NCBI GenBank assembly: GCA_026392465.1
Contig: JAPLCA010000008.1
Span: forward strand, 232,194 to 296,193
Length of the DNA stretch: 64,000 nucleotides
Reading direction: 5' to 3'
DNA from: Propionibacteriales bacterium
GTDB lineage: Bacteria; Actinomycetota; Actinomycetes; Propionibacteriales; Nocardioidaceae
Part shown: positions 1 to 60,563 of the stretch, one piece after another
How the letters are laid out: every line of letters begins with the position of its first letter
How positions within the stretch are numbered: position 1 is the stretch's first letter
Translations under genes and position numbers: made by a program
Notes under the pieces: generated by a model
The model's input: only the letters and a program-made list of their open reading frames with translations
Told to the model about the DNA's origin: nothing
Database searches by the model: none

Positions 1-142
1 CTACCGCACGCTCGCGTCGGCCACCGGCAACGGCCCGTGGATCGACTCCTACATCTGCGGCCTGTTCGACTCCTCCGGCAGCCCCGAGCTGCGCAACGAC
101 GTCGTCCGGGACTGCAAGCCGAGGAAGGGAGGGGGCCAGTGA
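1..142 (+). CDS. C-terminal fragment of an upstream Mce-family protein (5' end outside window)
   Basis: Frame 2 reads ...YRTLASATGNGPWIDSYICGLFDSSGSPELRNDVVRDCKPRKGGGQ*. The TGA at 140-142 overlaps the GTG at 139 of the next Mce gene. The call rests on operon context only. Confidence 0.45.
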   Translation, partial: YRTLASATGNGPWIDSYICGLFDSSGSPELRNDVVRDCKPRKGGGQ

Positions 143-1140
143 GACGCCGCAGCCTCGTGCTCGCCGTCGTCGTGGCGCTCGCCGTCGTGGCCACCGTCGG
201 CTGGCGCGCCACCGCCGACCGCGACCGCACCACCGTCAAGGCCGTCTTCGAGTCCAGCGTCGGCCTGTACGTCGGCTCCGACGTGCAGATGCTGGGCGTG
301 CCGGTCGGCAAGGTCACCGGCGTCGACCCCGGCCCCGCCGGCGTCACCGTGACGATGCGCCTCGACCACGGCGAGGCGGCCGCCGCCGACACCGCCGCGG
401 TCATCGTCGCACCCACGCTCGTGTCCGACCGGTTCGTGCAGCTGACGAAGCCGCACGTCTCCGGCCCGGAGCTGAAGGACGGCTCGGTGCTGCCCATCGA
501 CCGCACCGCCGTGCCCGTCGAGATCGACGACCTCTACGCCAGCCTCACCGACGTCAGCGAGAAGCTCGGCCCCGACGGCGCCAACCGCGACGGTGCGCTG
601 TCGCGCTTCCTCGACGTCGCCGACCGCAACCTGCGCGGCCAGGGCACCAAGATCAACCAGCTCATCAGCGACTTCGGCGACGCGTCGGGCACGCTCGCCG
701 ACTCCAGCGACGACCTCTTCGCGACGATCGGCAACGTCAAGGAGTTCAACGACATGCTGGTGGAGAACGACACGTCGGTCGCCAACGTCAACCGGCAGTT
801 CGCCGAGGTCAACGACTACCTCGCCGACAGCAGCGGAGACCTCGCCGCCGCGATCGACAACCTGGGCCAGGCGCTCGCGATCGTCGACGACTTCATCCGC
901 GACAACCGCGGCGCGCTGCGCACCAGCGTCGAGAACCTGCAGGGTCCGACGCGGGTGCTCGTCAACCAGCGGCAGGCGCTGGAGGAGACGGTGCGCCTCG
1001 TGCCGCTGGTCCTGCAGAACTTCCTGCGCGCCTACGACCCCCAGCGCAAGGCCCTGACCGGCCGCGGCAACCTCAACGAGGCGTCCATCTGGGCGCCCGG
1101 TGGCGACGCGCCCACCCTCCTGCCGGGGACGAACCGATGA
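139..1140 (+). CDS. Mce-family protein (MceD-like, MlaD-type domain)
   Basis: Same frame as track ORF 37..1140, with the start moved to GTG 139 (GTGA overlap). N-terminal TM LVLAVVVALAVVATVGW is followed by the MlaD/MCE core KAVFESSVGLYVGSDVQMLGVPVGKVTGVDP and a long helical C-terminus. Confidence 0.85.
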   Translation: MRRRSLVLAVVVALAVVATVGWRATADRDRTTVKAVFESSVGLYVGSDVQMLGVPVGKVTGVDPGPAGVTVTMRLDHGEAAAADTAAVIVAPTLVSDRFVQLTKPHVSGPELKDGSVLPIDRTAVPVEIDDLYASLTDVSEKLGPDGANRDGALSRFLDVADRNLRGQGTKINQLISDFGDASGTLADSSDDLFATIGNVKEFNDMLVENDTSVANVNRQFAEVNDYLADSSGDLAAAIDNLGQALAIVDDFIRDNRGALRTSVENLQGPTRVLVNQRQALEETVRLVPLVLQNFLRAYDPQRKALTGRGNLNEASIWAPGGDAPTLLPGTNR

Positions 1141-2468: not shown

Positions 2469-3661
2469 TGCTGACCGGACGCATCAAGGCGCAGATCGTG
2501 GCGTTCGTGGTCCTCGGGCTGCTCGCCACCTCCTACCTCGGCCTCAAGTACGTCGGCCTCGACCCGTTCTCGACGGGCTACACGGTGACGGCCACGCTGC
2601 CCGCCGCGGGAGGGGCGTTCGAGAACGGGCAGGTCACCTACCGTGGCGTGCCCGTCGGGCGCATCGACAAGCTCGACCCGACCGACGACGGCGTCCGGAT
2701 CACGATGTCCATCGAGGGTGGCGCGCCGCGCATCCCGGCGGACGCCAGCCCCAAGGTGGTCAACCGCTCCGCCATCGGCGAGCAGTACGTCGACCTGCAG
2801 GGCGGGACGGCCGGCGGCGCGGCGCTGAAGAACGGTGACCGGCTGAGCGCCGGGGCCGAGTCCCAGCCGCCGGACATCGACACGCTGCTGCGGTCGGGGG
2901 AGAAGTTCGTCGGCTCGGTGCCGAAGGAGGCGCTCACGTCGGTCATCGACGAGGGCTACGACGCGACGCAGGGGGTGGCGCTCGACTTCGGCTCGCTGCT
3001 GGAGAGCTCCCAGCGGTTCCAGAAGGCCGCCGACCGCAACTTCGTGGTCACCCGCGGTCTCATCGAGAACTCCGACCGGGTGCTGCGGACGCAGGAGGCG
3101 TCGTCGCAGAGCATCCGCTCGTTCAGCGCGGACCTGTCGACCATCGCCGCGACGCTCGAGTCGTCCGACGGCGACCTGCGCACCCTCATCGACAACACCC
3201 CGGCGGCGGCGCGCGAGATCGACACCCTCTTCCAGGAGGTGGGCCGCCCTCTCGGCGTCGTGCTCGCCAACCTGGTCACGCCGGCGCAGGTGTTCGGCAT
3301 CAACGCGAACGGTGTCCAGGACGCGCTGGTCACCGCGCCGAGGGCGTTCAGCATCGGCTGGACGATCACGGGCTCCCGGGGGATCAACCTCGCCCTCTCG
3401 CAGTCCTACTTCTCCCCGCTGCCGTGCACGACGGGCTACGGCGGCACGACCCCACGTCGCGGCACGGACACGTCGTCGGGTCAGTCGTTCAACCGCGACG
3501 CGGGCTGCCGCTCGGGCGCCGGGTCGTCGAACGTCCGAGGCCCGAAGAACGTCCCCAGCCGGTTGGGTCCCGCGCCCCGCCGCGACGCCGAGGGCCGGCT
3601 CGTGCGCGCCGACGTCCGCATGGCCGACTCGCTGGCCGACCTGATGGGTGGTGCACGATGA
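2465..3661 (+). CDS. Mce-family protein (MceF-like)
   Basis: Start is GTG 2465 or ATG 2468, overlapping the upstream stop. N-terminal TM IVAFVVLGLLATSYLGL. MCE core VTATLPAAGGAFENGQVTYRGVPVGRIDKL. Confidence 0.85.
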   Translation: MMLTGRIKAQIVAFVVLGLLATSYLGLKYVGLDPFSTGYTVTATLPAAGGAFENGQVTYRGVPVGRIDKLDPTDDGVRITMSIEGGAPRIPADASPKVVNRSAIGEQYVDLQGGTAGGAALKNGDRLSAGAESQPPDIDTLLRSGEKFVGSVPKEALTSVIDEGYDATQGVALDFGSLLESSQRFQKAADRNFVVTRGLIENSDRVLRTQEASSQSIRSFSADLSTIAATLESSDGDLRTLIDNTPAAAREIDTLFQEVGRPLGVVLANLVTPAQVFGINANGVQDALVTAPRAFSIGWTITGSRGINLALSQSYFSPLPCTTGYGGTTPRRGTDTSSGQSFNRDAGCRSGAGSSNVRGPKNVPSRLGPAPRRDAEGRLVRADVRMADSLADLMGGAR

Positions 3662-4284
3662 GCAGGACGACTGCGCTGGCCGAGCGTGGCAGCACGGGGG
3701 GAGACGGTGCCATGGAGGGGGCGACGAGCGACGCCGAGGTGCCCGACGGCGGTGGTCCGCCGACGTCGGACGAGCAGCCGCGAGGTCGCTGGCTGCTGGG
3801 CTGGGTGCTGCTCGCCGTGTCCCTCGCCGTCGCGGTGAGCGGCTCCGTGGCCTGGTGGAGCGCCGCGCACAGCGACGACCTGCAGCTGGCCCGCACGCGC
3901 GACGCCGTGCTCATCCGCGCCACCAGCGACATCGCCACGCTCAACAGCCTCGACTCCGCCGACGTGAAGGCCGGGCTCGACAGCTGGAAGGCGGTCACCA
4001 CCGGCACCCTGCACGACCAGTTCTCGGGGCTGGACGAGCAGGACCGCCAGCTCCTCGCCGACCAGGGCAAGGAGTCGCGCGGCAAGGTCGTCGACGCCGC
4101 CGTCCTCGACGTCGACGGCGACACCGCGGAGGTGATCGCGTCGGTCGAGACGACGGTGCGGGACGCGAAGGACGCCGACGCGGAGCCCGTCGTCAAGCGC
4201 AACCGGTTCACGGCGACCCTCGTCCGCTCGGGCGGGACGTGGAAGGTCAGCGACCTCCAGCAGCTCGCGGTGGAGCTCTCGTGA
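3658..4284 (+). CDS. Mce-associated membrane protein (Mas-like)
   Basis: ATG 3658 overlaps the MceF-like stop (ATGA). It has an acidic N-terminus, a single TM WLLGWVLLAVSLAVAVSGSVAWW and an NTF2-like C-terminal region. Its position directly after mceF is typical of Mas proteins. Confidence 0.7.
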   Translation: MSRTTALAERGSTGGDGAMEGATSDAEVPDGGGPPTSDEQPRGRWLLGWVLLAVSLAVAVSGSVAWWSAAHSDDLQLARTRDAVLIRATSDIATLNSLDSADVKAGLDSWKAVTTGTLHDQFSGLDEQDRQLLADQGKESRGKVVDAAVLDVDGDTAEVIASVETTVRDAKDADAEPVVKRNRFTATLVRSGGTWKVSDLQQLAVELS

Positions 4285-4787
4285 GGGGCGCGAGGCGGGC
4301 GGCCGTGGTCGTCGTGTCGCTGCTGGCCCTCGTCGCCGGCGGAGTCGGCTGGTGGCAGTACGTCGACCTCACGTCGGGTCCGGCCGCCGCCAACCGCGCG
4401 CTCGTCGACGCGAAGGAGACGTCGCAGGTGCAGTCGCAGGTGGCCGTCGCGCTCGAGCGCGTGCTCACCTACGACTACGCGGACCCGACGCCCACGGAGC
4501 AGTCCGCCGACGCCCTGCTCGCCGGCAAGGCCCGTCAGGAGTACGACACCCTGTTCGCCGCGCTGCAGAAGCAGGCCCCCGGCCAGAAGCTGGTACTCAC
4601 GGCGAAGGTCAGCACGGCCGGGGTGACCGAGCTGGAGGGCGACCATGCGGAGCTGCTGGTGTACGTGGACCAGTCCAGCCGTCGCGCAGGCGAGGACCAG
4701 GCCAACGTCTCCGCCGCGCAGCTGTCGGTGACGGCGAAGAAGTCGTCCGCAGGCACCTGGCAGGTCACCGGCCTGCGCCCCCTCTGA
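4281..4787 (+). CDS. Mce-associated membrane protein (second Mas-like paralog)
   Basis: GTG 4281 overlaps the upstream stop (GTGA). Single TM AAVVVVSLLALVAGGVGWW. The C-terminal region resembles the preceding gene (…VLTYDYADPT…, …AELLVYVDQ…). Confidence 0.65.
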   Translation: MRGARRAAVVVVSLLALVAGGVGWWQYVDLTSGPAAANRALVDAKETSQVQSQVAVALERVLTYDYADPTPTEQSADALLAGKARQEYDTLFAALQKQAPGQKLVLTAKVSTAGVTELEGDHAELLVYVDQSSRRAGEDQANVSAAQLSVTAKKSSAGTWQVTGLRPL

Positions 4788-51524: not shown

Positions 51525-51619
51525 AGTCGAAAAAGGTTCTGGACGGTATTCCTGACTTTCGTCCATAAAAGCTCGGCCCGGTGTCACGACTTTCCGTCCG
51601 GGCACGATAATCTGCGCGC

Positions 51620-51964
51620 ATGGCAAAAAAGACCGTGGAAAAGTTCTACTCCGACCTGAGCGGTGACGAGATCGACACCCCGTCTCCCACCGTCGCCTTC
51701 ACCTTCGACGGTGTCGGCTACGAGGTCGACCTCACCGAGGCCGAGCGGCAGGCCTTCGCCGACGCCGTCGCGCCCTACGTCGCGGTCGGTCGCCGCGCGG
51801 GCCGCGCCTCCGGCCGCAGCAGCTCGCGGCGCTCGTCGTCGTCCTCCGCGTCGTCGGTCGACGCCAAGGCCGTGCGGGAGTGGGCCCAGGAGCAGGGCCT
51901 CGACGTCCCCGCCCGTGGGCGCGTTCCCTCCTCGCTCATCGAGGCCTACCAGTCGGCGCACTGA
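51620..51964 (+). CDS. lsr2: Lsr2 family nucleoid-associated protein
   Basis: The N-terminal dimerisation domain is MAKKTVEKFYSDLSGDEID…VAFTFDGVGYEVDLTEAE. A basic Ser/Arg linker follows, then the C-terminal DNA-binding motif VREWAQEQGLDVPARGRVPSSLIEAY. The leader is AT-rich. Confidence 0.9.
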   Translation: MAKKTVEKFYSDLSGDEIDTPSPTVAFTFDGVGYEVDLTEAERQAFADAVAPYVAVGRRAGRASGRSSSRRSSSSSASSVDAKAVREWAQEQGLDVPARGRVPSSLIEAYQSAH

Positions 51965-52817: not shown

Positions 52818-52850
52818 GTCTGTTCCTTCGTCCGTCGTGTCCACGCGTCG

Positions 52851-53930
52851 GTTGACTTCAACCGGTTGTTGCAAGTAGCCCCTGGTTGAGGGCTTGGGCT
52901 GGAGTCTTCCATCCGAGGCTCTGGCGTGGGCGGGTGTTCAGACGTAGCGCGATCGCGTCGCACTCGTCCTGGGTGACGTGGCGCAGGTCCGCGCCCTTGG
53001 GCCAGTACTGACGCAGCAGTCCGTTGGTGTTCTCGTTGGATCCGCGCTGCCAGGGTGAGTGGGGGTCGCAGAAGAAGACCGGCATTCCGGTCGCGAGCGT
53101 GAACTCGGCGTGTTGGGCCATCTCTCGGCCCTGGTCCCAGGTCAGGGACTTGCGCAGCTCCAACGGGAGCCTGGCGATGATCCTGGTGAGCTGCTCGCGG
53201 GTGTCGGCCGCGTTGCGGGAGGTGTTCAACGGCGCCAGGAGCACGAACCGCGACGTCCGCTCGACCAGGGTGATGATCTGACCCTTGCCGATCCCACCCA
53301 GCAGCAGGTCGCCCTCCCAATGACCAGGCACCGCCCGGTCATCGGCCTCAGCCGGCCGCGCGGAAATCGGCATCATGCCCTTGAGCTTGCCGATCTTCTC
53401 GCTGCGACCCTTCGTCCCGCGCGCGACCCGACCAGTGCGCAGATGCGCGGTCAGCTCCCTGCGCAGCTCGCCACGGGTCTGCACGAACAGCGACTGATAG
53501 ATCGTCTCGTGACTCACCCGCATCGCCTCATCGTCTGGATACAGACTCGGCAACATCGCCGCGATCTGCTGCGGTGACCAGTCTGCCTCCAACAAGCCCG
53601 TGACCACCGCTGCGAGCTCTCCCACAACCTTGCACGCCTTGGGCCGACGTCCCCGTCGCCTGGCCAACCGCTGCGCCTTCGACGCCCGATACCGGGCAGG
53701 GCGACCGATCAACACCACACCGGCACGCGACGAACGCGGACCACCCCCACGACGCACCTCACGCGAAATCGTCGACGGCGAACGACCCAACACCGCTGCG
53801 ATCTGCCCCTGCGTCAGCCCCGCCTCCAGACCACGCTCGATCACCCACCGCTCACCCTCGACCAACCGAGAACCAGACATCGCCCACCTCCAGTAGTCAC
53901 ATCGTCTTGCAACTACCGGTTGAGACCACC
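52851..53930 (-). mobile_element. IS30-family insertion sequence (about 1080 bp) with imperfect 25-bp inverted repeats and a 3-bp TSD
   Basis: The left inverted repeat (IRL) is gttgacttcaaccggttgttgcaag. The reverse complement of the right repeat (IRR) is ggtggtctcaaccggtagttgcaag, matching at 19 of 25 positions. The element is flanked by direct tcg copies at 52848-52850 and 53931-53933. Confidence 0.85.
52858..53880 (-). CDS. IS30 family transposase
   Basis: 340 aa. N-terminal [27 protein letters not shown] region HWEGDLL…LTWDQGREM…[17 protein letters not shown]. Confidence 0.92.
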
Positions 53931-55276: not shown

Positions 55277-55334
55277 TGGCGGAGGAGAGGAGACTCCGTC
55301 GCTCGTCCCGCCCCCGGCTCCTCCTCGAATCCGC
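55277..55334 (-). repeat. tRNA-Ser-derived mini-repeat R1 (older att remnant or pseudo-tRNA fragment)
   Basis: On the minus strand it reads GCGGATTCGAGGAGGAGCC…GGAGTCTCCTCTCCTCCGCCA. It therefore keeps a GGATTCG 5' end and a CTCCTCCGCCA 3' end, but has no D or anticodon arms. It is similar to R2. Confidence 0.5.
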
Positions 55335-55381
55335 TAGCCCAGATCAGCGCCGGAGAACCCCTGGGCACGGTCTGGGCACGA

Positions 55382-55417
55382 AAGAACCCCTCGACATCGC
55401 AATGCCGAGGGGTTCTT
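55382..55417. other. Strong 12-bp hairpin between R1 and R2
   Basis: aagaacccctcg-acatcgcaatgc-cgaggggttctt forms a perfect stem. Confidence 0.5.
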
Positions 55418-55423
55418 GACCTC

Positions 55424-55475
55424 TGCGGAGGATAGGTGACTCCGTCGCTCGTTCCTCGCTCCTCCTCGAATCGCC
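55424..55475 (-). repeat. tRNA-Ser-derived mini-repeat R2 (distal att-like site of the island)
   Basis: The forward sequence tgcggaggataggtgactc… shares gcggaggatagg with the 3' end of tRNA-Ser at 60276-60287. The rest parallels R1 (…gactccgtcgctcgt.cc…gctcctcctcgaatc). Confidence 0.55.
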
Positions 55476-55530: not shown

Positions 55531-55974
55531 GTGGCGGAAGTTGTGCGGGCCAACTCGAAGTTCGCATGGATGCTTCCGAGCCTCAAGAAGGCTCGGGAGA
55601 TGGTGCTAGAAGCGGAGGATCGACAGACCAAGTCTTCGGGCACCCGAGTCCATCGGTTGTCGCAGCGATTGCCAGCGGAGGTCCTGGATGCTGTGGTCGC
55701 GGACTACGAGGGTGGGGGAGTCTCGACGGTCATATTGGGTGAAAGGCACGGAATCTCGGACTCGACGGTGAGGACGTTGCTGCATGGGCGAGGAGTGGCC
55801 ACACCACAGCGGAAGCTCAGTGAAGCTGACGTGGACGAGGTCGTGAGGATGTACGAACAGCAGATGACAATGCAGGCAATGGGTGAGCGGTTCGGGGTGA
55901 ATCGGGTGACGGTGCGTAATGCGCTGAGGCGACGAGGAGTTGAGTTGCGACGGCGGAGCTCGGCTCGATCCTGA
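55531..55974 (+). CDS. Hypothetical protein with two tandem helix-turn-helix motifs
   Basis: Track ORF, with the start uncertain (GTG 55531 or ATG 55570). Two similar ~45-aa units are present: LPAEVLDAVVADYEGGGVSTVILGERHGISDSTVRTLLHGRGV and LSEADVDEVVRMYEQQMTMQAMGERFGVNRVTVRNALRRRGV. Confidence 0.5.
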   Translation: MAEVVRANSKFAWMLPSLKKAREMVLEAEDRQTKSSGTRVHRLSQRLPAEVLDAVVADYEGGGVSTVILGERHGISDSTVRTLLHGRGVATPQRKLSEADVDEVVRMYEQQMTMQAMGERFGVNRVTVRNALRRRGVELRRRSSARS

Positions 55975-56129: not shown

Positions 56130-56411
56130 CTAGTACTCCGGAAGCGAAAGCAGATTGTCGTTCCACTCGCCGTTGGCATACGTCCTGATGTATGGGGCTG
56201 AACCAGTTGGGTGCACCGTCCCCACCTCGACGTAGTCGGTAGGGAATGTACCGACTATCGCTCGGTTCGACTCCGATCGATCTAATTAATCGACCGTAGT
56301 CTCTCGGGTGCTGGATCCGGTCGCACCGCTGTCGACATTGCACCATTGGACGTCTGAAATGTGCTCGTGGCGGTGTCCGCCGACCATGTGCCTCGCAATA
56401 ATTTCAATCAT
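56130..56411 (-). pseudogene. DUF3892-like gene interrupted by an in-frame TAA
   Basis: ATG 56411 follows ggagattcgac. It translates as MIEIIARHMVGGHRHEHISDVQWCNVDSGATGSSTRETTVD*LDRSESNRAIVGTFPTDYVEVGTVHPTGSAPYIRTYANGEWNDNLLSLPEY*. The internal TAA lies at 56286-56288, inside the AT-rich gattaattagatc. Confidence 0.6.
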
Positions 56412-56503: not shown

Positions 56504-57106
56504 CTACAGTTTTCGACCAGTTTTCGAGCTGGCGAACATGACGATACCTGCGACCAGGAAAGTAGCGCTCAGGGACGCGTCCCTGTAGTTAGTCGGATCC
56601 CAGTAGAAGATCCCTAGGAGTCCCTGGTCCGAGACACTGCCGGAGAAGGTGCTAGCAAAAAAGAGGATTGCACCGCTCACGAGATAGATTCGCGTCGAGA
56701 AGATGAACTTCGCGGTCGCGCAGCAAAAATAGGTGAGGGCAAAGTTTCTGCTCGCCAGCAGTGCCGCCGCCGGATCCATTCGCGACACGAGCGGTAAGGC
56801 TAACGCGAATGCGACGCTGCATACGATCGTTGGTCTTGCCGCGGCCGATAGCCGCGTCATCGAGCCCACTCGCGCCCGCATCTCGGCAACGTCGTCTCCC
56901 GACGCGTAGTAGGAGGCAAGCGTTCCCATTGTCAGAGGGACCAGTACCTCGCTCACCACATTCCATCGTGAGTCCTGACCAAAGCTGATCGCCGAGAGAG
57001 ATCCGGATGCCGCGAGAACGTTGGCAAGAAGGGCGCAGCCAGCTCCAGCCGCGTAGACGAGGAGGACGAGCAAGCAGTCAGGGCCGGAGAGGCCTGCTAT
57101 GCGCAT
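56504..57106 (-). CDS. Polytopic membrane protein (second permease-like component of the island ABC module)
   Basis: ATG 57106, or TTG 57115 as in the track. It has about six hydrophobic segments and starts 5 nt after the upstream stop. Confidence 0.55.
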   Translation of the reverse strand: MRIAGLSGPDCLLVLLVYAAGAGCALLANVLAASGSLSAISFGQDSRWNVVSEVLVPLTMGTLASYYASGDDVAEMRARVGSMTRLSAAARPTIVCSVAFALALPLVSRMDPAAALLASRNFALTYFCCATAKFIFSTRIYLVSGAILFFASTFSGSVSDQGLLGIFYWDPTNYRDASLSATFLVAGIVMFASSKTGRKL

Positions 57107-57111
57107 CCGTG

Positions 57112-58362
57112 TCAATTCTCGGCACAGTTCTGCATCGCGCGTCGCGCGGACGCGATCATCTGATCGGTCGACTGGTCCGCCGGCCCGGGCGATGATCCCT
57201 GCTGGACGACATAGTCGTAGAGCGATCGCAAGCGGGAGTCAGTGAAGACTTGCTCTGCAGAGCAGCCGCTAGCCTTGAAGACAAACTCTGCGACGTAGAC
57301 CACTGCCTTCTCGTCACTGCTGGGGGTCTCTAAAAAGTAGGCAGTGGGCCCGGCGTGCCTACCCTCTACCTGCAACCCACGCTGCACGATCATCCGCGGA
57401 ACCATCGACGGGGGAAGCTGCCGTCCGATTCTGGCCTGGGCTCTTTGAAGACGCGCCGCTCCCGTCTTCTCATTCGTGAAGGCACATACGGTGTACTTGT
57501 CCCCGATGCAGGCGAAGTTCCCTGCCTGAGGTCGCTCCACGATGGGGGCACTCACGGCCCCGACCCCCTGGATGCCGAGGGCTAAAACCACTATCGCAAG
57601 CCCAGCGGAGGTAAGAGAGACGATCCTCGATCGGCTGTTGACGAGCAACAGTGCGCCGACGGTGGCAAACATGAAGAGGGCCGCCGAAGCAGCTACTGCC
57701 TCGTGGGCGAACAGCAAATCGGTCGAGACTTGAGCGGACGGCTCAAGAGCTCGAGACGTGATGACAAAGCTGTAGCGTTCGGCGTCTTTCGCGCTGAGTG
57801 AGGACGGCAACGAGATCGCGAGGATGAAGATGATCAAGCCGACCAAGAGCGAGAACACGTACGCTCCCGCTAAAGGCAGCCGTAGCAGTACATCGATTGC
57901 GACTCCGACGAGGTAGCCGACCGATATTCCGAGAAGCGAGAATGCCGGAGGGTCGAGCAGCTGTGCAACGCCAATCTGCGGTTCGCCGACCTGGACAACG
58001 TTGATCACCGTCAACGCGAACGCGAACAGCAACGTCTGGAGCGTGAGTGCCACGTACCCGTGAGCCAACGTTTGCATGTCGCAGACGAATCGCGTGCGCG
58101 TACCTTGCCTCAGGAGGTCTCGCAGCCCCAGCGGCCTGGCACTCACGACCGCGAAGGTACCCATGGCTCCCGCGATCGGCATGAGCAGCTGCGCCGTGGA
58201 GCCGTAAAGAAATTGAGCGTCTCGGGGCGAACTGGTGACGCTCGATACCCGGATGATGAAGTAATAGAGCAGGATGGCGGCCGACAACGCGAGGAAACTC
58301 TTGAGGCTGACCGGGCCACGCAACGTCTTCCAGATGTCAGACCACAAGCGGTTCAAGGACAC
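57112..58362 (-). CDS. Large polytopic membrane protein with a soluble C-terminal domain (permease-like component)
   Basis: GTG 58362 overlaps the ATPase 3' end. Roughly eight TM segments are followed by a ~130-aa Cys-containing hydrophilic tail (…NFACIGDKYTVCAF…KASGCSAEQ…RAMQNCAEN). Confidence 0.6.
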   Translation of the reverse strand: MSLNRLWSDIWKTLRGPVSLKSFLALSAAILLYYFIIRVSSVTSSPRDAQFLYGSTAQLLMPIAGAMGTFAVVSARPLGLRDLLRQGTRTRFVCDMQTLAHGYVALTLQTLLFAFALTVINVVQVGEPQIGVAQLLDPPAFSLLGISVGYLVGVAIDVLLRLPLAGAYVFSLLVGLIIFILAISLPSSLSAKDAERYSFVITSRALEPSAQVSTDLLFAHEAVAASAALFMFATVGALLLVNSRSRIVSLTSAGLAIVVLALGIQGVGAVSAPIVERPQAGNFACIGDKYTVCAFTNEKTGAARLQRAQARIGRQLPPSMVPRMIVQRGLQVEGRHAGPTAYFLETPSSDEKAVVYVAEFVFKASGCSAEQVFTDSRLRSLYDYVVQQGSSPGPADQSTDQMIASARRAMQNCAEN

Positions 58363-59002
58363 CTCCAGCGATGGTCAGCTGGGTGTCAGCGATGTCGGCG
58401 GCGTCGCGCCCGTGATCGGTGAGGAGTATCGATGGAGCGGCATCGGCTGAAGTCAACACCGTCCGCAATAGGTGGGATGTCTCCTGGTCGAGGCCCGCAA
58501 ACGGTTCATCCAAGAGGAGGACTGCCGGCGCGGCGATCATCGCCTGGGCAACCAAAACTCTTCGTTTGAAACCACCCGAGAGCGCACCGATTCGACGGCC
58601 CAGGAACTGGGAGAACTCCAGCTTCTCCGACAGCTCACGCGCCGACGTGGCGGCATCCGTCGGCGAGACTCTCTTGAGCCAACCCGCGTCGCGAACCGTC
58701 CACCGGGAAGGGAGCACCAGCGCCTGGGGAACGTATCCCATGAGCTTGAACGCGGCCGCCCGTGAGCTCCTCTGCTTCATGCTCAGACCGCACACTGCCA
58801 GTTCGTCGAGGCGACGAAGGTGCAGGCCCGAGAGAGCTTCCAGCAAGGTCGACTTCCCCGAGCCATTGGCGCCGCTCAGAAGCGTGATCCCAGCTGCCAA
58901 CTCGAACGTCGGAACCGAGAGCTGGAACCCGCCTCTGCGCCGGATGTGCAGCCCGTCCACGCGAAGCGCACGGGATGCCTCTGTTCTCTGCACAGATGCC
59001 AA
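58337..59002 (-). CDS. ABC transporter ATP-binding protein (LanF-like size, no fused TMD)
   Basis: Walker A GANGSGKST, signature LSGGFKRR, Walker B VLLLDEPFAGLD, H-loop TDH. The start codon is non-ATG: TTG 59002, with GTG 58993 as the alternative. Confidence 0.85.
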   Translation of the reverse strand: MASVQRTEASRALRVDGLHIRRRGGFQLSVPTFELAAGITLLSGANGSGKSTLLEALSGLHLRRLDELAVCGLSMKQRSSRAAAFKLMGYVPQALVLPSRWTVRDAGWLKRVSPTDAATSARELSEKLEFSQFLGRRIGALSGGFKRRVLVAQAMIAAPAVLLLDEPFAGLDQETSHLLRTVLTSADAAPSILLTDHGRDAADIADTQLTIAGGVLEPLVV

Positions 59003-59005
59003 CCC

Positions 59006-59461
59006 TCAGCAGAAGCGCTTCTCGCCGGAGAGTCCCCGGCTTCCGTCCACCACTCCGTTGTTGTAGTTGACCTGGTAGTAGGAGACGCTCTTGAACTTCC
59101 AGTGGTCCGGCAGGTCGGAGCAGTACTCGAGGTTCTCCTTGTACCGGTTCGCTCCTCGCGCCGCCCAGGTCGAGTAGCTGCTGTAGGAGCCCGAGACCGT
59201 TGGCCAGTCGTTCGGGATCGGTCCCCAGTTGATGTCTTCCTTGGCGAGTCCGACCTTCACTCGCCACGTGTCGACGTCCTCGCCACTGCACTTGCCGTTG
59301 ACGTCGTAGTGGACGTACGACCCGTTGCCTGAGGGGTCGTTGGCCTTGCGGCAGATGCCAACTGCCGCGTTCGCGGATGAGACGACCGAGCCCGCGGTCA
59401 GGATGAGACACACTGCTGCCACGATTGCGCCCGCTGTCGACTTTGTCTTGATGTCCATCAT
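59006..59461 (-). CDS. Orphan secreted 4-Cys protein (151 aa precursor)
   Basis: aggag precedes the ATGATG start. The signal peptide is KSTAGAIVAAVCLILTAGSVVSSANA, followed by AVG. The mature part is rich in W/Y/N/G, with Cys in ICRK, GKCSG and EYCSD plus the C-terminal RFC. No family recognised. Confidence 0.6.
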   Translation of the reverse strand: MMDIKTKSTAGAIVAAVCLILTAGSVVSSANAAVGICRKANDPSGNGSYVHYDVNGKCSGEDVDTWRVKVGLAKEDINWGPIPNDWPTVSGSYSSYSTWAARGANRYKENLEYCSDLPDHWKFKSVSYYQVNYNNGVVDGSRGLSGEKRFC

Positions 59462-59569
59462 CTCCTGAGTTGTTGATGGTTCTGCAAAAACTGCGTAGGC
59501 TTCTGAATACGGTCAGTCCGGAACTCCTCCCGACGCGCCGCGGTACAGAGTCGCGAGGGAAGCGAGAGG

Positions 59570-59845
59570 TTGACCATGGCGTCCGTCCCACATCGCTGCG
59601 AGGAGTGCGGGTCAGAGGTGCGCAGCGGATCTGAAGCCCGACCGGGAAGCACTGTGGAGTCGGACGAGCATGACTCCTCCGATTTCTGCCTCAACCCGGA
59701 CTGTCCGTCGAACTACGCATTCCGTGGATTCCACCGGACTGGCGTCGCTGAGTACCTCTGCCTTGAATGCGGGGCCACCGTGCATCCACCGCCGGCGGAC
59801 TTGGCCAAGCATCGACGCAGCCATGGGGAGCCATCGTTGATTTAG
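59570..59845 (+). CDS. Hypothetical small zinc-ribbon-like protein
   Basis: Track ORF of 91 aa. Cys pairs CEEC and CLEC plus CLNPDC. It is divergent from the secreted-protein operon. Coding status is uncertain. Confidence 0.35.
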   Translation: MTMASVPHRCEECGSEVRSGSEARPGSTVESDEHDSSDFCLNPDCPSNYAFRGFHRTGVAEYLCLECGATVHPPPADLAKHRRSHGEPSLI

Positions 59846-59943: not shown

Positions 59944-60274
59944 ATGGCGACGACGAAGGAACTGTCCATAGGGGCAGACGTCATGCGGTGGGCGATCGAG
60001 CTACTCACAGACATCAGCGGTGCCTATGCCAAGGTGCCGGACAACGTGAGAGGAACGCTGAACCGCACACTGTTCGAGCGCGTCTACCTGGATGAGTTCG
60101 GCGAGGTGGCGTCGAGCGACGTTCAGGCACCATTCCGAGGGTTGGTCGAGGATGAGCCCGGAGGCAACGACAAACGCCCCGATCTGAAGATCGAGGCGTC
60201 CGACGTTGTTGGCTTGACCGACTTACTCGCCCGACCCGAGGTGAATCCTCGGTCGGGTTCGAGTAAGGCCGTCA
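59944..60274 (+). pseudogene. Remnant of a recombinase C-terminus (serine-recombinase-family-like tail), truncated and running into the tRNA
   Basis: …AIELLTDISGAYAKVPDNVRGTLNRTLFERVYLDEFGEVASSDVQAPFRGLV… resembles, from memory, the conserved C-terminal tail (…NQAFFEKIYVDD…PF..L) of actinobacterial recombinase-family proteins. No catalytic N-terminal domain lies upstream. The frame has no stop before the tRNA. Confidence 0.35.
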
Positions 60275-60362
60275 TGGCGGAGGATAGGGGATTCGAACCC
60301 CTGAGAGCTTTCACTCAACCCGCTTTCCAAGCGAGCGCACTAGGCCACTATGCGAATCCTCC
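60275..60362 (-). tRNA. tRNA-Ser (anticodon GGA)
   Basis: The minus strand reads GGAGGAT-TC-GCAT…GTGC-G-CTCGC-TTGGAAA-GCGGG-(long variable arm TTGAGTGAAAGCTCTCA)-GGGGG-TTCGAAT-CCCCT-ATCCTCC-G-CCA. It is 88 nt long with an encoded CCA. Confidence 0.9.
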
Positions 60363-60563
60363 GCGGACGAGCGTACCGGTCGCATCCCGCGTGGAACGCA
60401 CCGGGGCAGCCCCCGTATGCTGGGCGCAGCCCCTCGCGTGGCGCTATCTCACCCAACTCCCCCAGGGCCGGAAGGCAGCAAGGGTCAGTGGGCTCTGGCG
60501 GGTACGCGAGGGGTCCTTCACGTCCTCGACCGTTGCTCGCCGTCGCGACGGCCCGTCCGCCCG

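Follow-up and report, generated by a model that had tools for sequence, protein, structure and literature searches.

Lactococcin 972 is made as a Sec-dependent prepeptide (PMC7248182) and binds lipid II (PMC9964109). For propionicin T1, also Sec-dependent, Faye et al. proposed an immunity role for the ATP-binding cassette (ABC) gene located downstream, with export not needing it (PMC5756557). Here we examined a 64,000-nucleotide stretch of a Propionibacteriales contig (JAPLCA010000008.1, positions 232,194 to 296,193 of the forward strand; hereafter the window), in which four minus-strand genes at 56504-59461 encode a secreted protein, a stand-alone ABC ATPase, and two membrane proteins, and a fifth, divergent gene encodes a zinc-finger protein (Table 1). 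By analogy with the architecture of known systems, we tentatively favor reading this unit as a mobile protein bacteriocin that depends on Sec for its export and comes with ABC-based self-immunity, together forming a self-contained five-gene cassette of soil Actinomycetota.

The precursor of the secreted protein begins with a Sec-type signal peptide that has a Lys-rich n-region, a hydrophobic core at residues 9-27, and a cleavage motif of ANA followed by Ala; an n-h-c signal peptide and AxA site were found in all members of the secreted-protein family. Exactly four Cys residues are present in the mature part (C37, C58, C114, and C151, the last being the C-terminal residue), which upheld the preliminary description of this locus as encoding a Sec-secreted protein with four mature Cys, as judged by sequence reading and hydropathy. 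The signal peptide holds one further Cys, C22; as this residue is outside any lipobox and not conserved, a lipoprotein was rejected. A solute-binding protein of an importer was likewise rejected, since no solute-binding domain was detected. When the family was aligned, C114 and C151 were found to be invariant and C37 and C58 to be present in at least 90% of the sequences; disulfide pairing is probably C37-C58 and C114-C151. Conservation was also apparent in an NWGPIPNxW loop, where G80, P81, P83, and N84 are invariant and N78 and W86 nearly so, as well as at S145 (invariant) and at R67 and E75 (nearly invariant). The mature proteins are hydrophilic, with 9-17% aromatic residues (most 12-17%), and are mostly acidic to neutral (isoelectric point 5-7), with two basic members.

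Structure prediction by AlphaFold2 with an 11-sequence alignment gave five long beta strands at a predicted local distance difference test (pLDDT) score of >90 over residues 40-150 (106 residues), while a run with the single sequence was useless (pLDDT 36). This confident model predicts the mature secreted domain to be all-beta and of a beta-sandwich-like fold class. Foldseek comparison with the PDB and BFVD revealed no convincing match to the mature domain, with template modeling scores of at most 0.43. The top hits were generic immunoglobulin/fibronectin type III (FnIII)-like sandwiches, including Kir cytoplasmic domains, the FnIII domain of Ihog, and Spo0M; we do not read homology into these hits. 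The secreted protein and its family had no match in Pfam, NCBIfam, PADLOC, or PHROG, and a PDB sequence-profile search with the secreted protein yielded noise only. Thus, no housekeeping or enzyme family was matched in any of these libraries. The earlier statements that the protein is devoid of a lipobox, a lactococcin-972 motif, and an enzyme motif were borne out by these results, and the homology to a housekeeping family that was to count against a toxin was found neither by family nor by structure.

The family is small and its linkage to the ABC genes is conserved. In an exhaustive search with phmmer, 1.84 billion cluster representatives yielded nine true relatives, which are 33-45% identical, and one eukaryotic hit that was spurious; this sets the family at about 10 clusters among the 1.84 billion representative proteins. 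The label "orphan" given previously was, thus, abandoned. A word-seeded search of 5.8 billion proteins matched the secreted protein to itself only. The relatives are secreted proteins of about 140-185 amino acids and all derive from metagenome or SRA assemblies; no relative was detected (i) by a family motif scan of 185,579 GTDB species-representative genomes, (ii) in viral contigs, or (iii) by tblastn of the secreted protein against plasmid and phage records. Among the clusters with downstream DNA (the window group, L092, L093, L094, L095, L096, L006, L008, and the decayed L007), an ATPase of the same family was encoded directly downstream of the secreted protein in 9/9; the absence of linkage to ABC genes that was to refute the preliminary interpretation was, thus, not observed. 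The two genes often overlap at the stop/start codons across the clusters. Membrane proteins of 404-434 and then 195-203 amino acids follow the ATPase wherever the contig reaches, as observed for L003, L006, L008, L093, L094, and L096. The L007 locus (2589-4676) is a decayed and rearranged copy of the cassette: one strand has the secreted-protein gene in truncated form plus a fragment encoding the ATPase N terminus, and the other has an ATPase C terminus fused to the Cys domain, followed by a 200-amino-acid membrane protein gene and a zinc-finger gene. In the distant locus L008, the gene that comes before the cassette (59-544, plus strand) encodes an HExxH-containing protein (HELAHLL) that by eye resembles the ImmA/IrrE-type metalloprotease regulators found on mobile elements.

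Selection on the cassette was estimated by comparing the window with the 79%-identical cassette L003 and the 92%-identical cassette L010. Across 8-35% protein divergence, the five genes all had a ratio of nonsynonymous to synonymous substitution rates (dN/dS) of 0.07-0.26 (Table 1), the range in the comparison with L003 being 0.08-0.26. All five genes are under purifying selection, which is strongest on the mature secreted domain: between the window and L003, this domain is 95% identical, compared with 62% for the signal peptide and 67-79% for the pump proteins. Such constraint is in keeping with a conserved external (envelope) target. Based on the dN/dS values and the distant homologues, chance open reading frames (ORFs) in GC-rich DNA were rejected.

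The four minus-strand genes show operon-like packing, and, apart from one junction, the ORF coordinates, gaps, and overlaps were as read in the sequence at the outset. In the window, a 3-nucleotide gap separates the end of the secreted-protein gene from the start of the ATPase gene, and the ATPase gene overlaps the gene of the 416-amino-acid protein by 26 nucleotides. The remaining junction was revised: a 5-nucleotide gap and a protein of about 200 amino acids had been described, which reflects an alternative ATG at 57106, while the TTG start overlaps the TGA stop of the preceding gene (TTGA) and gives 203 amino acids. No terminator-like site was found between the cassette genes, the one weak 5-bp stem being inside the gene of the 416-amino-acid protein. 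The GC content by kb is 0.58-0.63 at 56-60 kb and 0.65 at 55-56 kb; elsewhere in the window it is 0.68-0.78, except at 53-54 kb (0.655), where an IS30 insertion is located. The scan, thus, agrees with the claim that this is the only markedly A/T-richer stretch, the other dip being the IS30 element. What the preliminary description had missed was the fifth conserved gene and the tRNA-island context, and its four-gene unit was to this extent incomplete.

Table 1. Features of the cassette and its borders in the window, with dN/dS estimates from the comparisons with L003 and L010.
Feature	Coordinates	Strand	Basis	dN/dS
Secreted-protein gene, 151-amino-acid precursor	59006-59461	-	ORF list	
Sec-type signal peptide, residues 1-32, cleavage after ANA	59366-59461	-	hydropathy and AxA motif	0.30
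Mature secreted domain, ~119 amino acids (coordinates include stop codon)	59006-59365	-	family alignment and AlphaFold model	0.07-0.08
Stand-alone ABC ATPase gene, 221 amino acids, TTG start	58337-59002	-	ORF list and PF00005	0.19-0.21
416-amino-acid membrane protein gene	57112-58362	-	ORF list	0.18
Membrane domain of 416-amino-acid protein, 7 predicted transmembrane segments, N terminus inside	57535-58362	-	hydropathy and positive-inside counts	
Extracytoplasmic C-terminal domain of 416-amino-acid protein, ~140 amino acids, four conserved Cys (predicted)	57112-57534	-	topology and alignment	
Second membrane subunit gene, 203 amino acids, TTG start	56504-57115	-	ORF list	0.21
Divergent intergenic region, 108 bp, presumed promoter/operator	59462-59569		direct reading and conservation	
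Fifth conserved gene, 91-amino-acid Cys/His zinc-finger protein	59570-59845	+	homologues, PDB profile, and dN/dS	0.13-0.26
tRNA-Ser(GGA), 3' end as left island border	60275-60362	-	ARAGORN and Rfam	
Two degenerate tRNA-Ser 3'-end copies, att-like right island border	55277-55472		repeats D1, D3, and D13	

The ATPase matched PF00005 at 77 bits (cut-off 25), and its motifs were intact, including the Walker A (GANGSGKST), Q-loop, LSGG, Walker B (LLLDEP), and H-loop, all of which recur in the 7 homologues compared; Gln stands at the Q-loop position (Q93, in YVPQ) of 7/7 cassette ATPases. Its nearest solved nucleotide-binding domains are those of the ABCA family, and this sequence kinship hints at an ABC-2/type V exporter class. 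Four residues (EYLxY) just after the Q-loop, around codon 105, are missing in the window ATPase and kept in 6/6 of the other cassette ATPases. This in-frame 12-nucleotide deletion is common to the window, L001, and L002, the residues appear to be kept in the 98%-identical strain variant L004, and the deletion might affect coupling of the ATPase to the membrane subunits.

Both membrane proteins belong to unannotated families. The 416-amino-acid protein is conserved in L003, L006, L008, L093, L094, and L096 with the same layout of 7 transmembrane segments plus a Cys domain, of whose four Cys residues three (C285, C293, and C413) never vary and the fourth, C367, is kept in 5/6 sequences. The distribution of Lys and Arg follows the positive-inside pattern with the N terminus inside, and because 7 transmembrane segments are predicted, the 140-amino-acid domain with its four Cys residues is predicted to be outside the cell. 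Topology and conserved Cys residues, thus, agree with the extracytoplasmic Cys-containing tail suggested earlier for the larger membrane protein, and we consider this domain a candidate docking site for the secreted protein. The 203-amino-acid protein has about 6 hydrophobic segments and homologues at the same position in L003, L006, L093, L096, and the decayed L007, with an RN motif, two Gly residues, and one Asp residue being invariant. Neither protein, nor their 5-6 homologues, matched Pfam or NCBIfam even at E-values of up to 1-5, and for the two proteins PADLOC, PHROG, PDB-sequence, and plasmid searches were also without a match. Profile-profile comparison of the two detected no similarity between them, and a LanE/LanG-like paralogy could not be shown.

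The zinc-finger protein has the motif CxxC ... CxxxxC ... CxxC ... HxxxH. Homologues of 72-92 amino acids accompany the cassette in L003, L010, L006, L093, and L007; the gene is upstream and divergent in the window, L003, and L010 and downstream and co-oriented in L006 and L093. The exception was L096, where an unrelated 89-amino-acid ORF occupies this position. The family profile matched C2H2 fingers of the PDB (ZNF568 and consensus fingers) at E-values of 4.8e-7 to 1e-5. The window protein scored 24 bits against Pfam zf-C2H2_DHX34, below the cut-off of 27, and the L006 homologue is without the first His of HxxxH. The protein is probably a local regulator of the cassette. The intergenic region shared with the operon is largely conserved among the window, L004, L010, and L003 and has an AGGAG ribosome-binding site just upstream of an ATG pair; no sigma-70 consensus was found in this region. 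An upstream riboswitch or leader RNA was rejected, as Rfam matched only the tRNA and a signal recognition particle (SRP) RNA.

The cassette was found to reside in a genomic island. The host was identified as an Aeromicrobium (Nocardioidaceae, Propionibacteriales) from the neighboring acyl-CoA dehydrogenase, which shares 96% identity with its counterpart in Aeromicrobium sp. CnD17-E. Thirteen related loci keep the acyl-CoA dehydrogenase pair, and ten of them also have the tRNA-Ser(GGA). In those ten, similarity to the window ends at the tRNA 3' end (60270-60276, mostly 60275/60276), and similarity to the related loci resumes only around 51.9 kb; one relative has genes of ordinary GC content in the 51.9-60.3 kb interval. 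Repeats of the tRNA end were identified at 60275-60294, 55423-55442, and 55277-55296, the latter two being 146 nucleotides apart. Their 12-nucleotide core, GCGGAGGATAGG, has 3 occurrences with at most 1 mismatch compared with 0.33 expected, and 0/100 shuffles reached 3. A unit of ~55 nucleotides is repeated at 55277-55475, each copy having a degenerate tRNA-Ser acceptor/3' end (GGAGGAG...CTCCTCCGC), and the tandem att-like sites may be traces of two integration or excision events, one after the other. As defined by the tRNA 3' end, the direct repeats, and the low GC content (0.58-0.65 compared with about 0.72), the island is a decayed, tRNA-associated element of roughly 5 kb. No integrase or recombinase domain was found between 55.2 and 60.3 kb.

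Evidence for mobility also came from other loci. The same cassette, 92% identical, is located next to kup on a different contig and at a different locus, again of low GC content (L010); an IS3 OrfA fragment adjoins the cassette in L003; and in most loci the cassette has a lower GC content (0.56-0.66) than its flanks. Based on these three observations, the cassette is mobile accessory DNA. Horizontal acquisition, as proposed in the preliminary description, is in keeping with these findings and with the low GC content, synteny break, and direct repeats at the tRNA-Ser gene in the window.

These results allow a mechanism to be proposed for the cassette as a bacteriocin with self-immunity. From its sequence, the precursor would be exported by Sec and cleaved by signal peptidase after ANA32, and the ~119-residue mature product is modeled to fold as a beta-sandwich-like domain that would be stapled by the presumed disulfides. 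Released as a diffusible bacteriocin-like protein, it might bind a conserved envelope target of related bacteria through the aromatic-rich NWGPIPNxW surface. The translationally coupled ATPase, 7-transmembrane, and 6-transmembrane proteins would form an ABC complex, the outward domain with its four Cys residues could capture the secreted protein at the producer surface, and ATP hydrolysis would keep it off the producer's target, thereby providing self-immunity (cf. lactococcin 972, propionicin T1, and the lantibiotics). The co-travelling C2H2-like zinc-finger protein would regulate the cassette locally. Because the secreted protein has a signal peptide, the ABC system is presumably not needed for its export; this dispensability, together with movement of the unit as one cassette, is what leads us to favor an antagonistic protein with ABC self-protection. 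Several points weigh against this interpretation: (i) it is from architecture only that the toxin and immunity roles are proposed; (ii) the mature proteins, mostly acidic or neutral and hydrophilic, are unlike classical cationic bacteriocins; (iii) Foldseek gave no toxin-like match in the PDB or BFVD, and none of the known immunity families in Pfam or NCBIfam was matched by the pump proteins; (iv) strong purifying selection, with no diversification of toxin and immunity, equally fits a structural or binding role; and (v) the window copy of the ATPase may be impaired, as it is missing four residues that none of the six homologues has lost.

Four other explanations were weighed. We regard it as rather unlikely that the ABC proteins export a lipid, glycolipid, glycan, or small molecule, with the secreted protein serving as an acceptor, carrier, or surface-binding partner (cf. 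LolA, LprG, and MlaC) and a modified cell surface, e.g., for stress or phage resistance, as the outcome. The ABCA-type lipid exporters that provide the nearest solved nucleotide-binding domains would suit such a role, as would a soluble, aromatic-rich, non-cationic beta domain that is like many binding modules, the strong purifying selection, and the stop/start coupling of the secreted-protein and ATPase genes, which suggests a fixed stoichiometry. However, no biosynthetic gene for an exported compound is linked to the cassette in any locus, the Foldseek hits included no known lipid-carrier fold, and a cassette this tiny, rare, and mobile is unusual for envelope biogenesis.

We consider it improbable that the complex acts in mechanotransmission or signaling of the FtsEX/MacB kind, in which nothing would be transported and ATP hydrolysis would instead move the C-terminal domain of the 7-transmembrane protein to control or sense the secreted partner, with the zinc finger as the transcriptional output. 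An ABC ATPase, a membrane protein with a conserved outward domain, and a dedicated secreted partner are indeed found together here, and the gene for a putative DNA-binding zinc finger is conserved in linkage to them. Yet no FtsX or MacB domain and no topology of 4 transmembrane segments plus a periplasmic loop were detected, the secreted partner has neither a hydrolase nor a coiled-coil domain, and in L096 the zinc-finger gene is missing from its usual position.

Equally little credit can be given to a defensive function, in which the secreted protein would neutralize an external attacker, be it a protease, a lysin, a bacteriocin, or the receptor-binding protein of a phage, and the pump would clear this or a related agent. 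Small disulfide-stabilized secreted inhibitors are common in actinomycetes, the secreted protein is acidic and soluble, and the cassette is accessory and mobile, all of which would accord with such a binder. On the other hand, no PADLOC model matched any of the non-ATPase proteins, no likeness to known inhibitor folds was detected, and the tight translational coupling of binder and ATPase would be left unexplained. A phage defense system was rejected separately, since PADLOC gave generic P-loop hits only. That the cassette is a nonfunctional, decaying remnant of a mobile element with ORFs surviving by chance, as an island without an intact integrase, the DUF3892 pseudogene with its in-frame stop, the 4-residue deletion in the window ATPase, and the rearranged and broken L007 copy could suggest, is highly improbable, being contradicted by dN/dS values well below neutrality in all five genes and by ORFs that are all full length compared with distant homologues.

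Other genes and elements were noted in and around the island. A 147-amino-acid helix-turn-helix (HTH) protein (Sigma70_r4/HTH_23-like), similar to phage DNA-binding proteins, is encoded at 55531-55974 (plus strand); cassettes of other lineages are found without it, and it was probably carried in as cargo or left behind by the element that integrated here. The DUF3892 pseudogene (56130-56411, minus strand) has an in-frame TAA after codon 41, and its read-through product matched Pfam at an E-value of 3.8e-10. An ORF fragment that ends at the tRNA (59950-60270, plus strand; MATTKELSIGADVMRWAIELL...TLNRTLFERVYLDEFGEV...) had no Pfam, PHROG, or plasmid tblastn match; it could be the remnant of a recombinase C terminus, but since no library or plasmid search supported this, it was not assigned. 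Beside the tRNA-Ser(GGA), a small SRP RNA (ffs; 60425-60500, plus strand) was recognized by Rfam at 42 bits versus a threshold of 40, with the match clipped at the end of the searched stretch. The IS30-family transposase element spans 52851-53925 and has a 340-amino-acid ORF with HTH_38 and rve domains; its insertion is recent, as the near-identical contig L001 joins 52850 to 53926 without the ~1.07-kb segment. A gene for Lsr2 is near the cassette both in the window (~51619-51962, as part of the conserved backbone) and at L096 (4909-5235), an unrelated locus. Lsr2 is a xenogeneic silencer of actinobacteria that binds AT-richer foreign DNA, and the island may, for this reason, be silenced by Lsr2 under laboratory conditions.

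If the secreted protein is antagonistic, it would provide a new family and fold of protein bacteriocins from Actinomycetota, together with a new type of ABC self-protection, and the outward domain would be a direct handle on how pumps recognize their cognate protein. Somewhat more tentatively than the bacteriocin function itself, we propose that it may represent a new class of mobile actinobacterial antagonism module composed of a Sec-exported, disulfide-stapled beta-fold toxin, an ABC immunity machine with an outward Cys receptor domain on its 7-transmembrane subunit, and a C2H2-like zinc-finger regulator. Being small (about 3.4 kb), self-contained, and mobile, the cassette can be transferred to a heterologous host in one piece. 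Even if the secreted protein is not a toxin, there are still four conserved, unannotated protein families that always co-occur, along with a rare bacterial C2H2-like zinc finger.

The cassette was compared with described systems in which an ABC ATPase accompanies a secreted product. The FtsEX-type (type VII) systems, whose partners include PcsB, CwlO, RipC, and EnvC, are similar in combining an ABC ATPase, a membrane protein with an extracytoplasmic domain, and a secreted protein. The cassette differs from FtsEX, MacB, and LolCDE in that no FtsX or MacB_PCD match and no 4-transmembrane protein with a large loop between the first and second segments were detected; furthermore, its secreted protein has no hydrolase or coiled coil, and it is a mobile, accessory locus and not part of the core division machinery.

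The LanFEG transporters share with the cassette a stand-alone ATPase and two different small-to-medium membrane subunits beside a secreted product, as well as the proposed role of keeping this product off the producer's membrane. LanE and LanG are both 6-transmembrane permeases of the ABC-2 type, with about 210-250 amino acids. In contrast, the cassette proteins matched no LanE/LanG (MutE/MutG-type) or ABC-2 membrane model, and one subunit has 7 transmembrane segments with a 140-amino-acid domain predicted to be outside. At the Q-loop, the cassette ATPase still has Gln, whereas LanF reportedly has Glu there (an E-loop). No lanthipeptide precursor or LanB/C/M gene was present among the ORFs of 52-63 kb or in the related loci.

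Propionicin T1 (pctA and the orf2 ABC gene) and propionicin SM1 are from the same order, Propionibacteriales, and have Sec-signal precursors; for propionicin T1, the downstream ABC gene with its proposed immunity role adds to the likeness. The difference is that propionicin T1 is a 65-amino-acid cationic peptide and its ABC protein a single fused polypeptide; the likeness is one of description, and no sequence relationship is claimed.

The lactococcin 972 cluster of Lactococcus (class IId) resembles the cassette (i) in having, within a single operon, a gene for a Sec-dependent, unmodified secreted protein and, after it, genes for an ABC ATPase and a polytopic membrane protein; (ii) in its 7-transmembrane membrane protein (here predicted), mobile locus, and all-beta product; and (iii) in having no dedicated exporter, C39 peptidase, processing protease, or modification gene. 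It differs, as the secreted protein and 10 relatives had no match to TIGR01653 or its Pfam equivalent, no cassette member matched TIGR01654 (7-transmembrane putative immunity protein), and the cassette ATPase scored 62.4 bits against TIGR03608 (L_ocin_972_ABC), for which the cut-off is 254.85. In addition, the mature protein is ~119 rather than 66 amino acids, has two presumed disulfides, and is not cationic, and the cassette has two different membrane subunits plus a zinc-finger gene and is hosted by Actinomycetota. Of the terms "LanFEG-like" and "lactococcin-972-like" used in the preliminary description, the analogy in architecture holds, while membership was not borne out by any LanE/LanG, lactococcin 972, 7-transmembrane immunity, or FtsX match. 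Because these sequence tests of LanFEG and lactococcin 972 membership fail, the resemblance is one of architecture only. Judged from its sequences, the cassette is a Sec-dependent secreted protein coupled with an ABC module, a combination known in architecture and here built from unannotated families.

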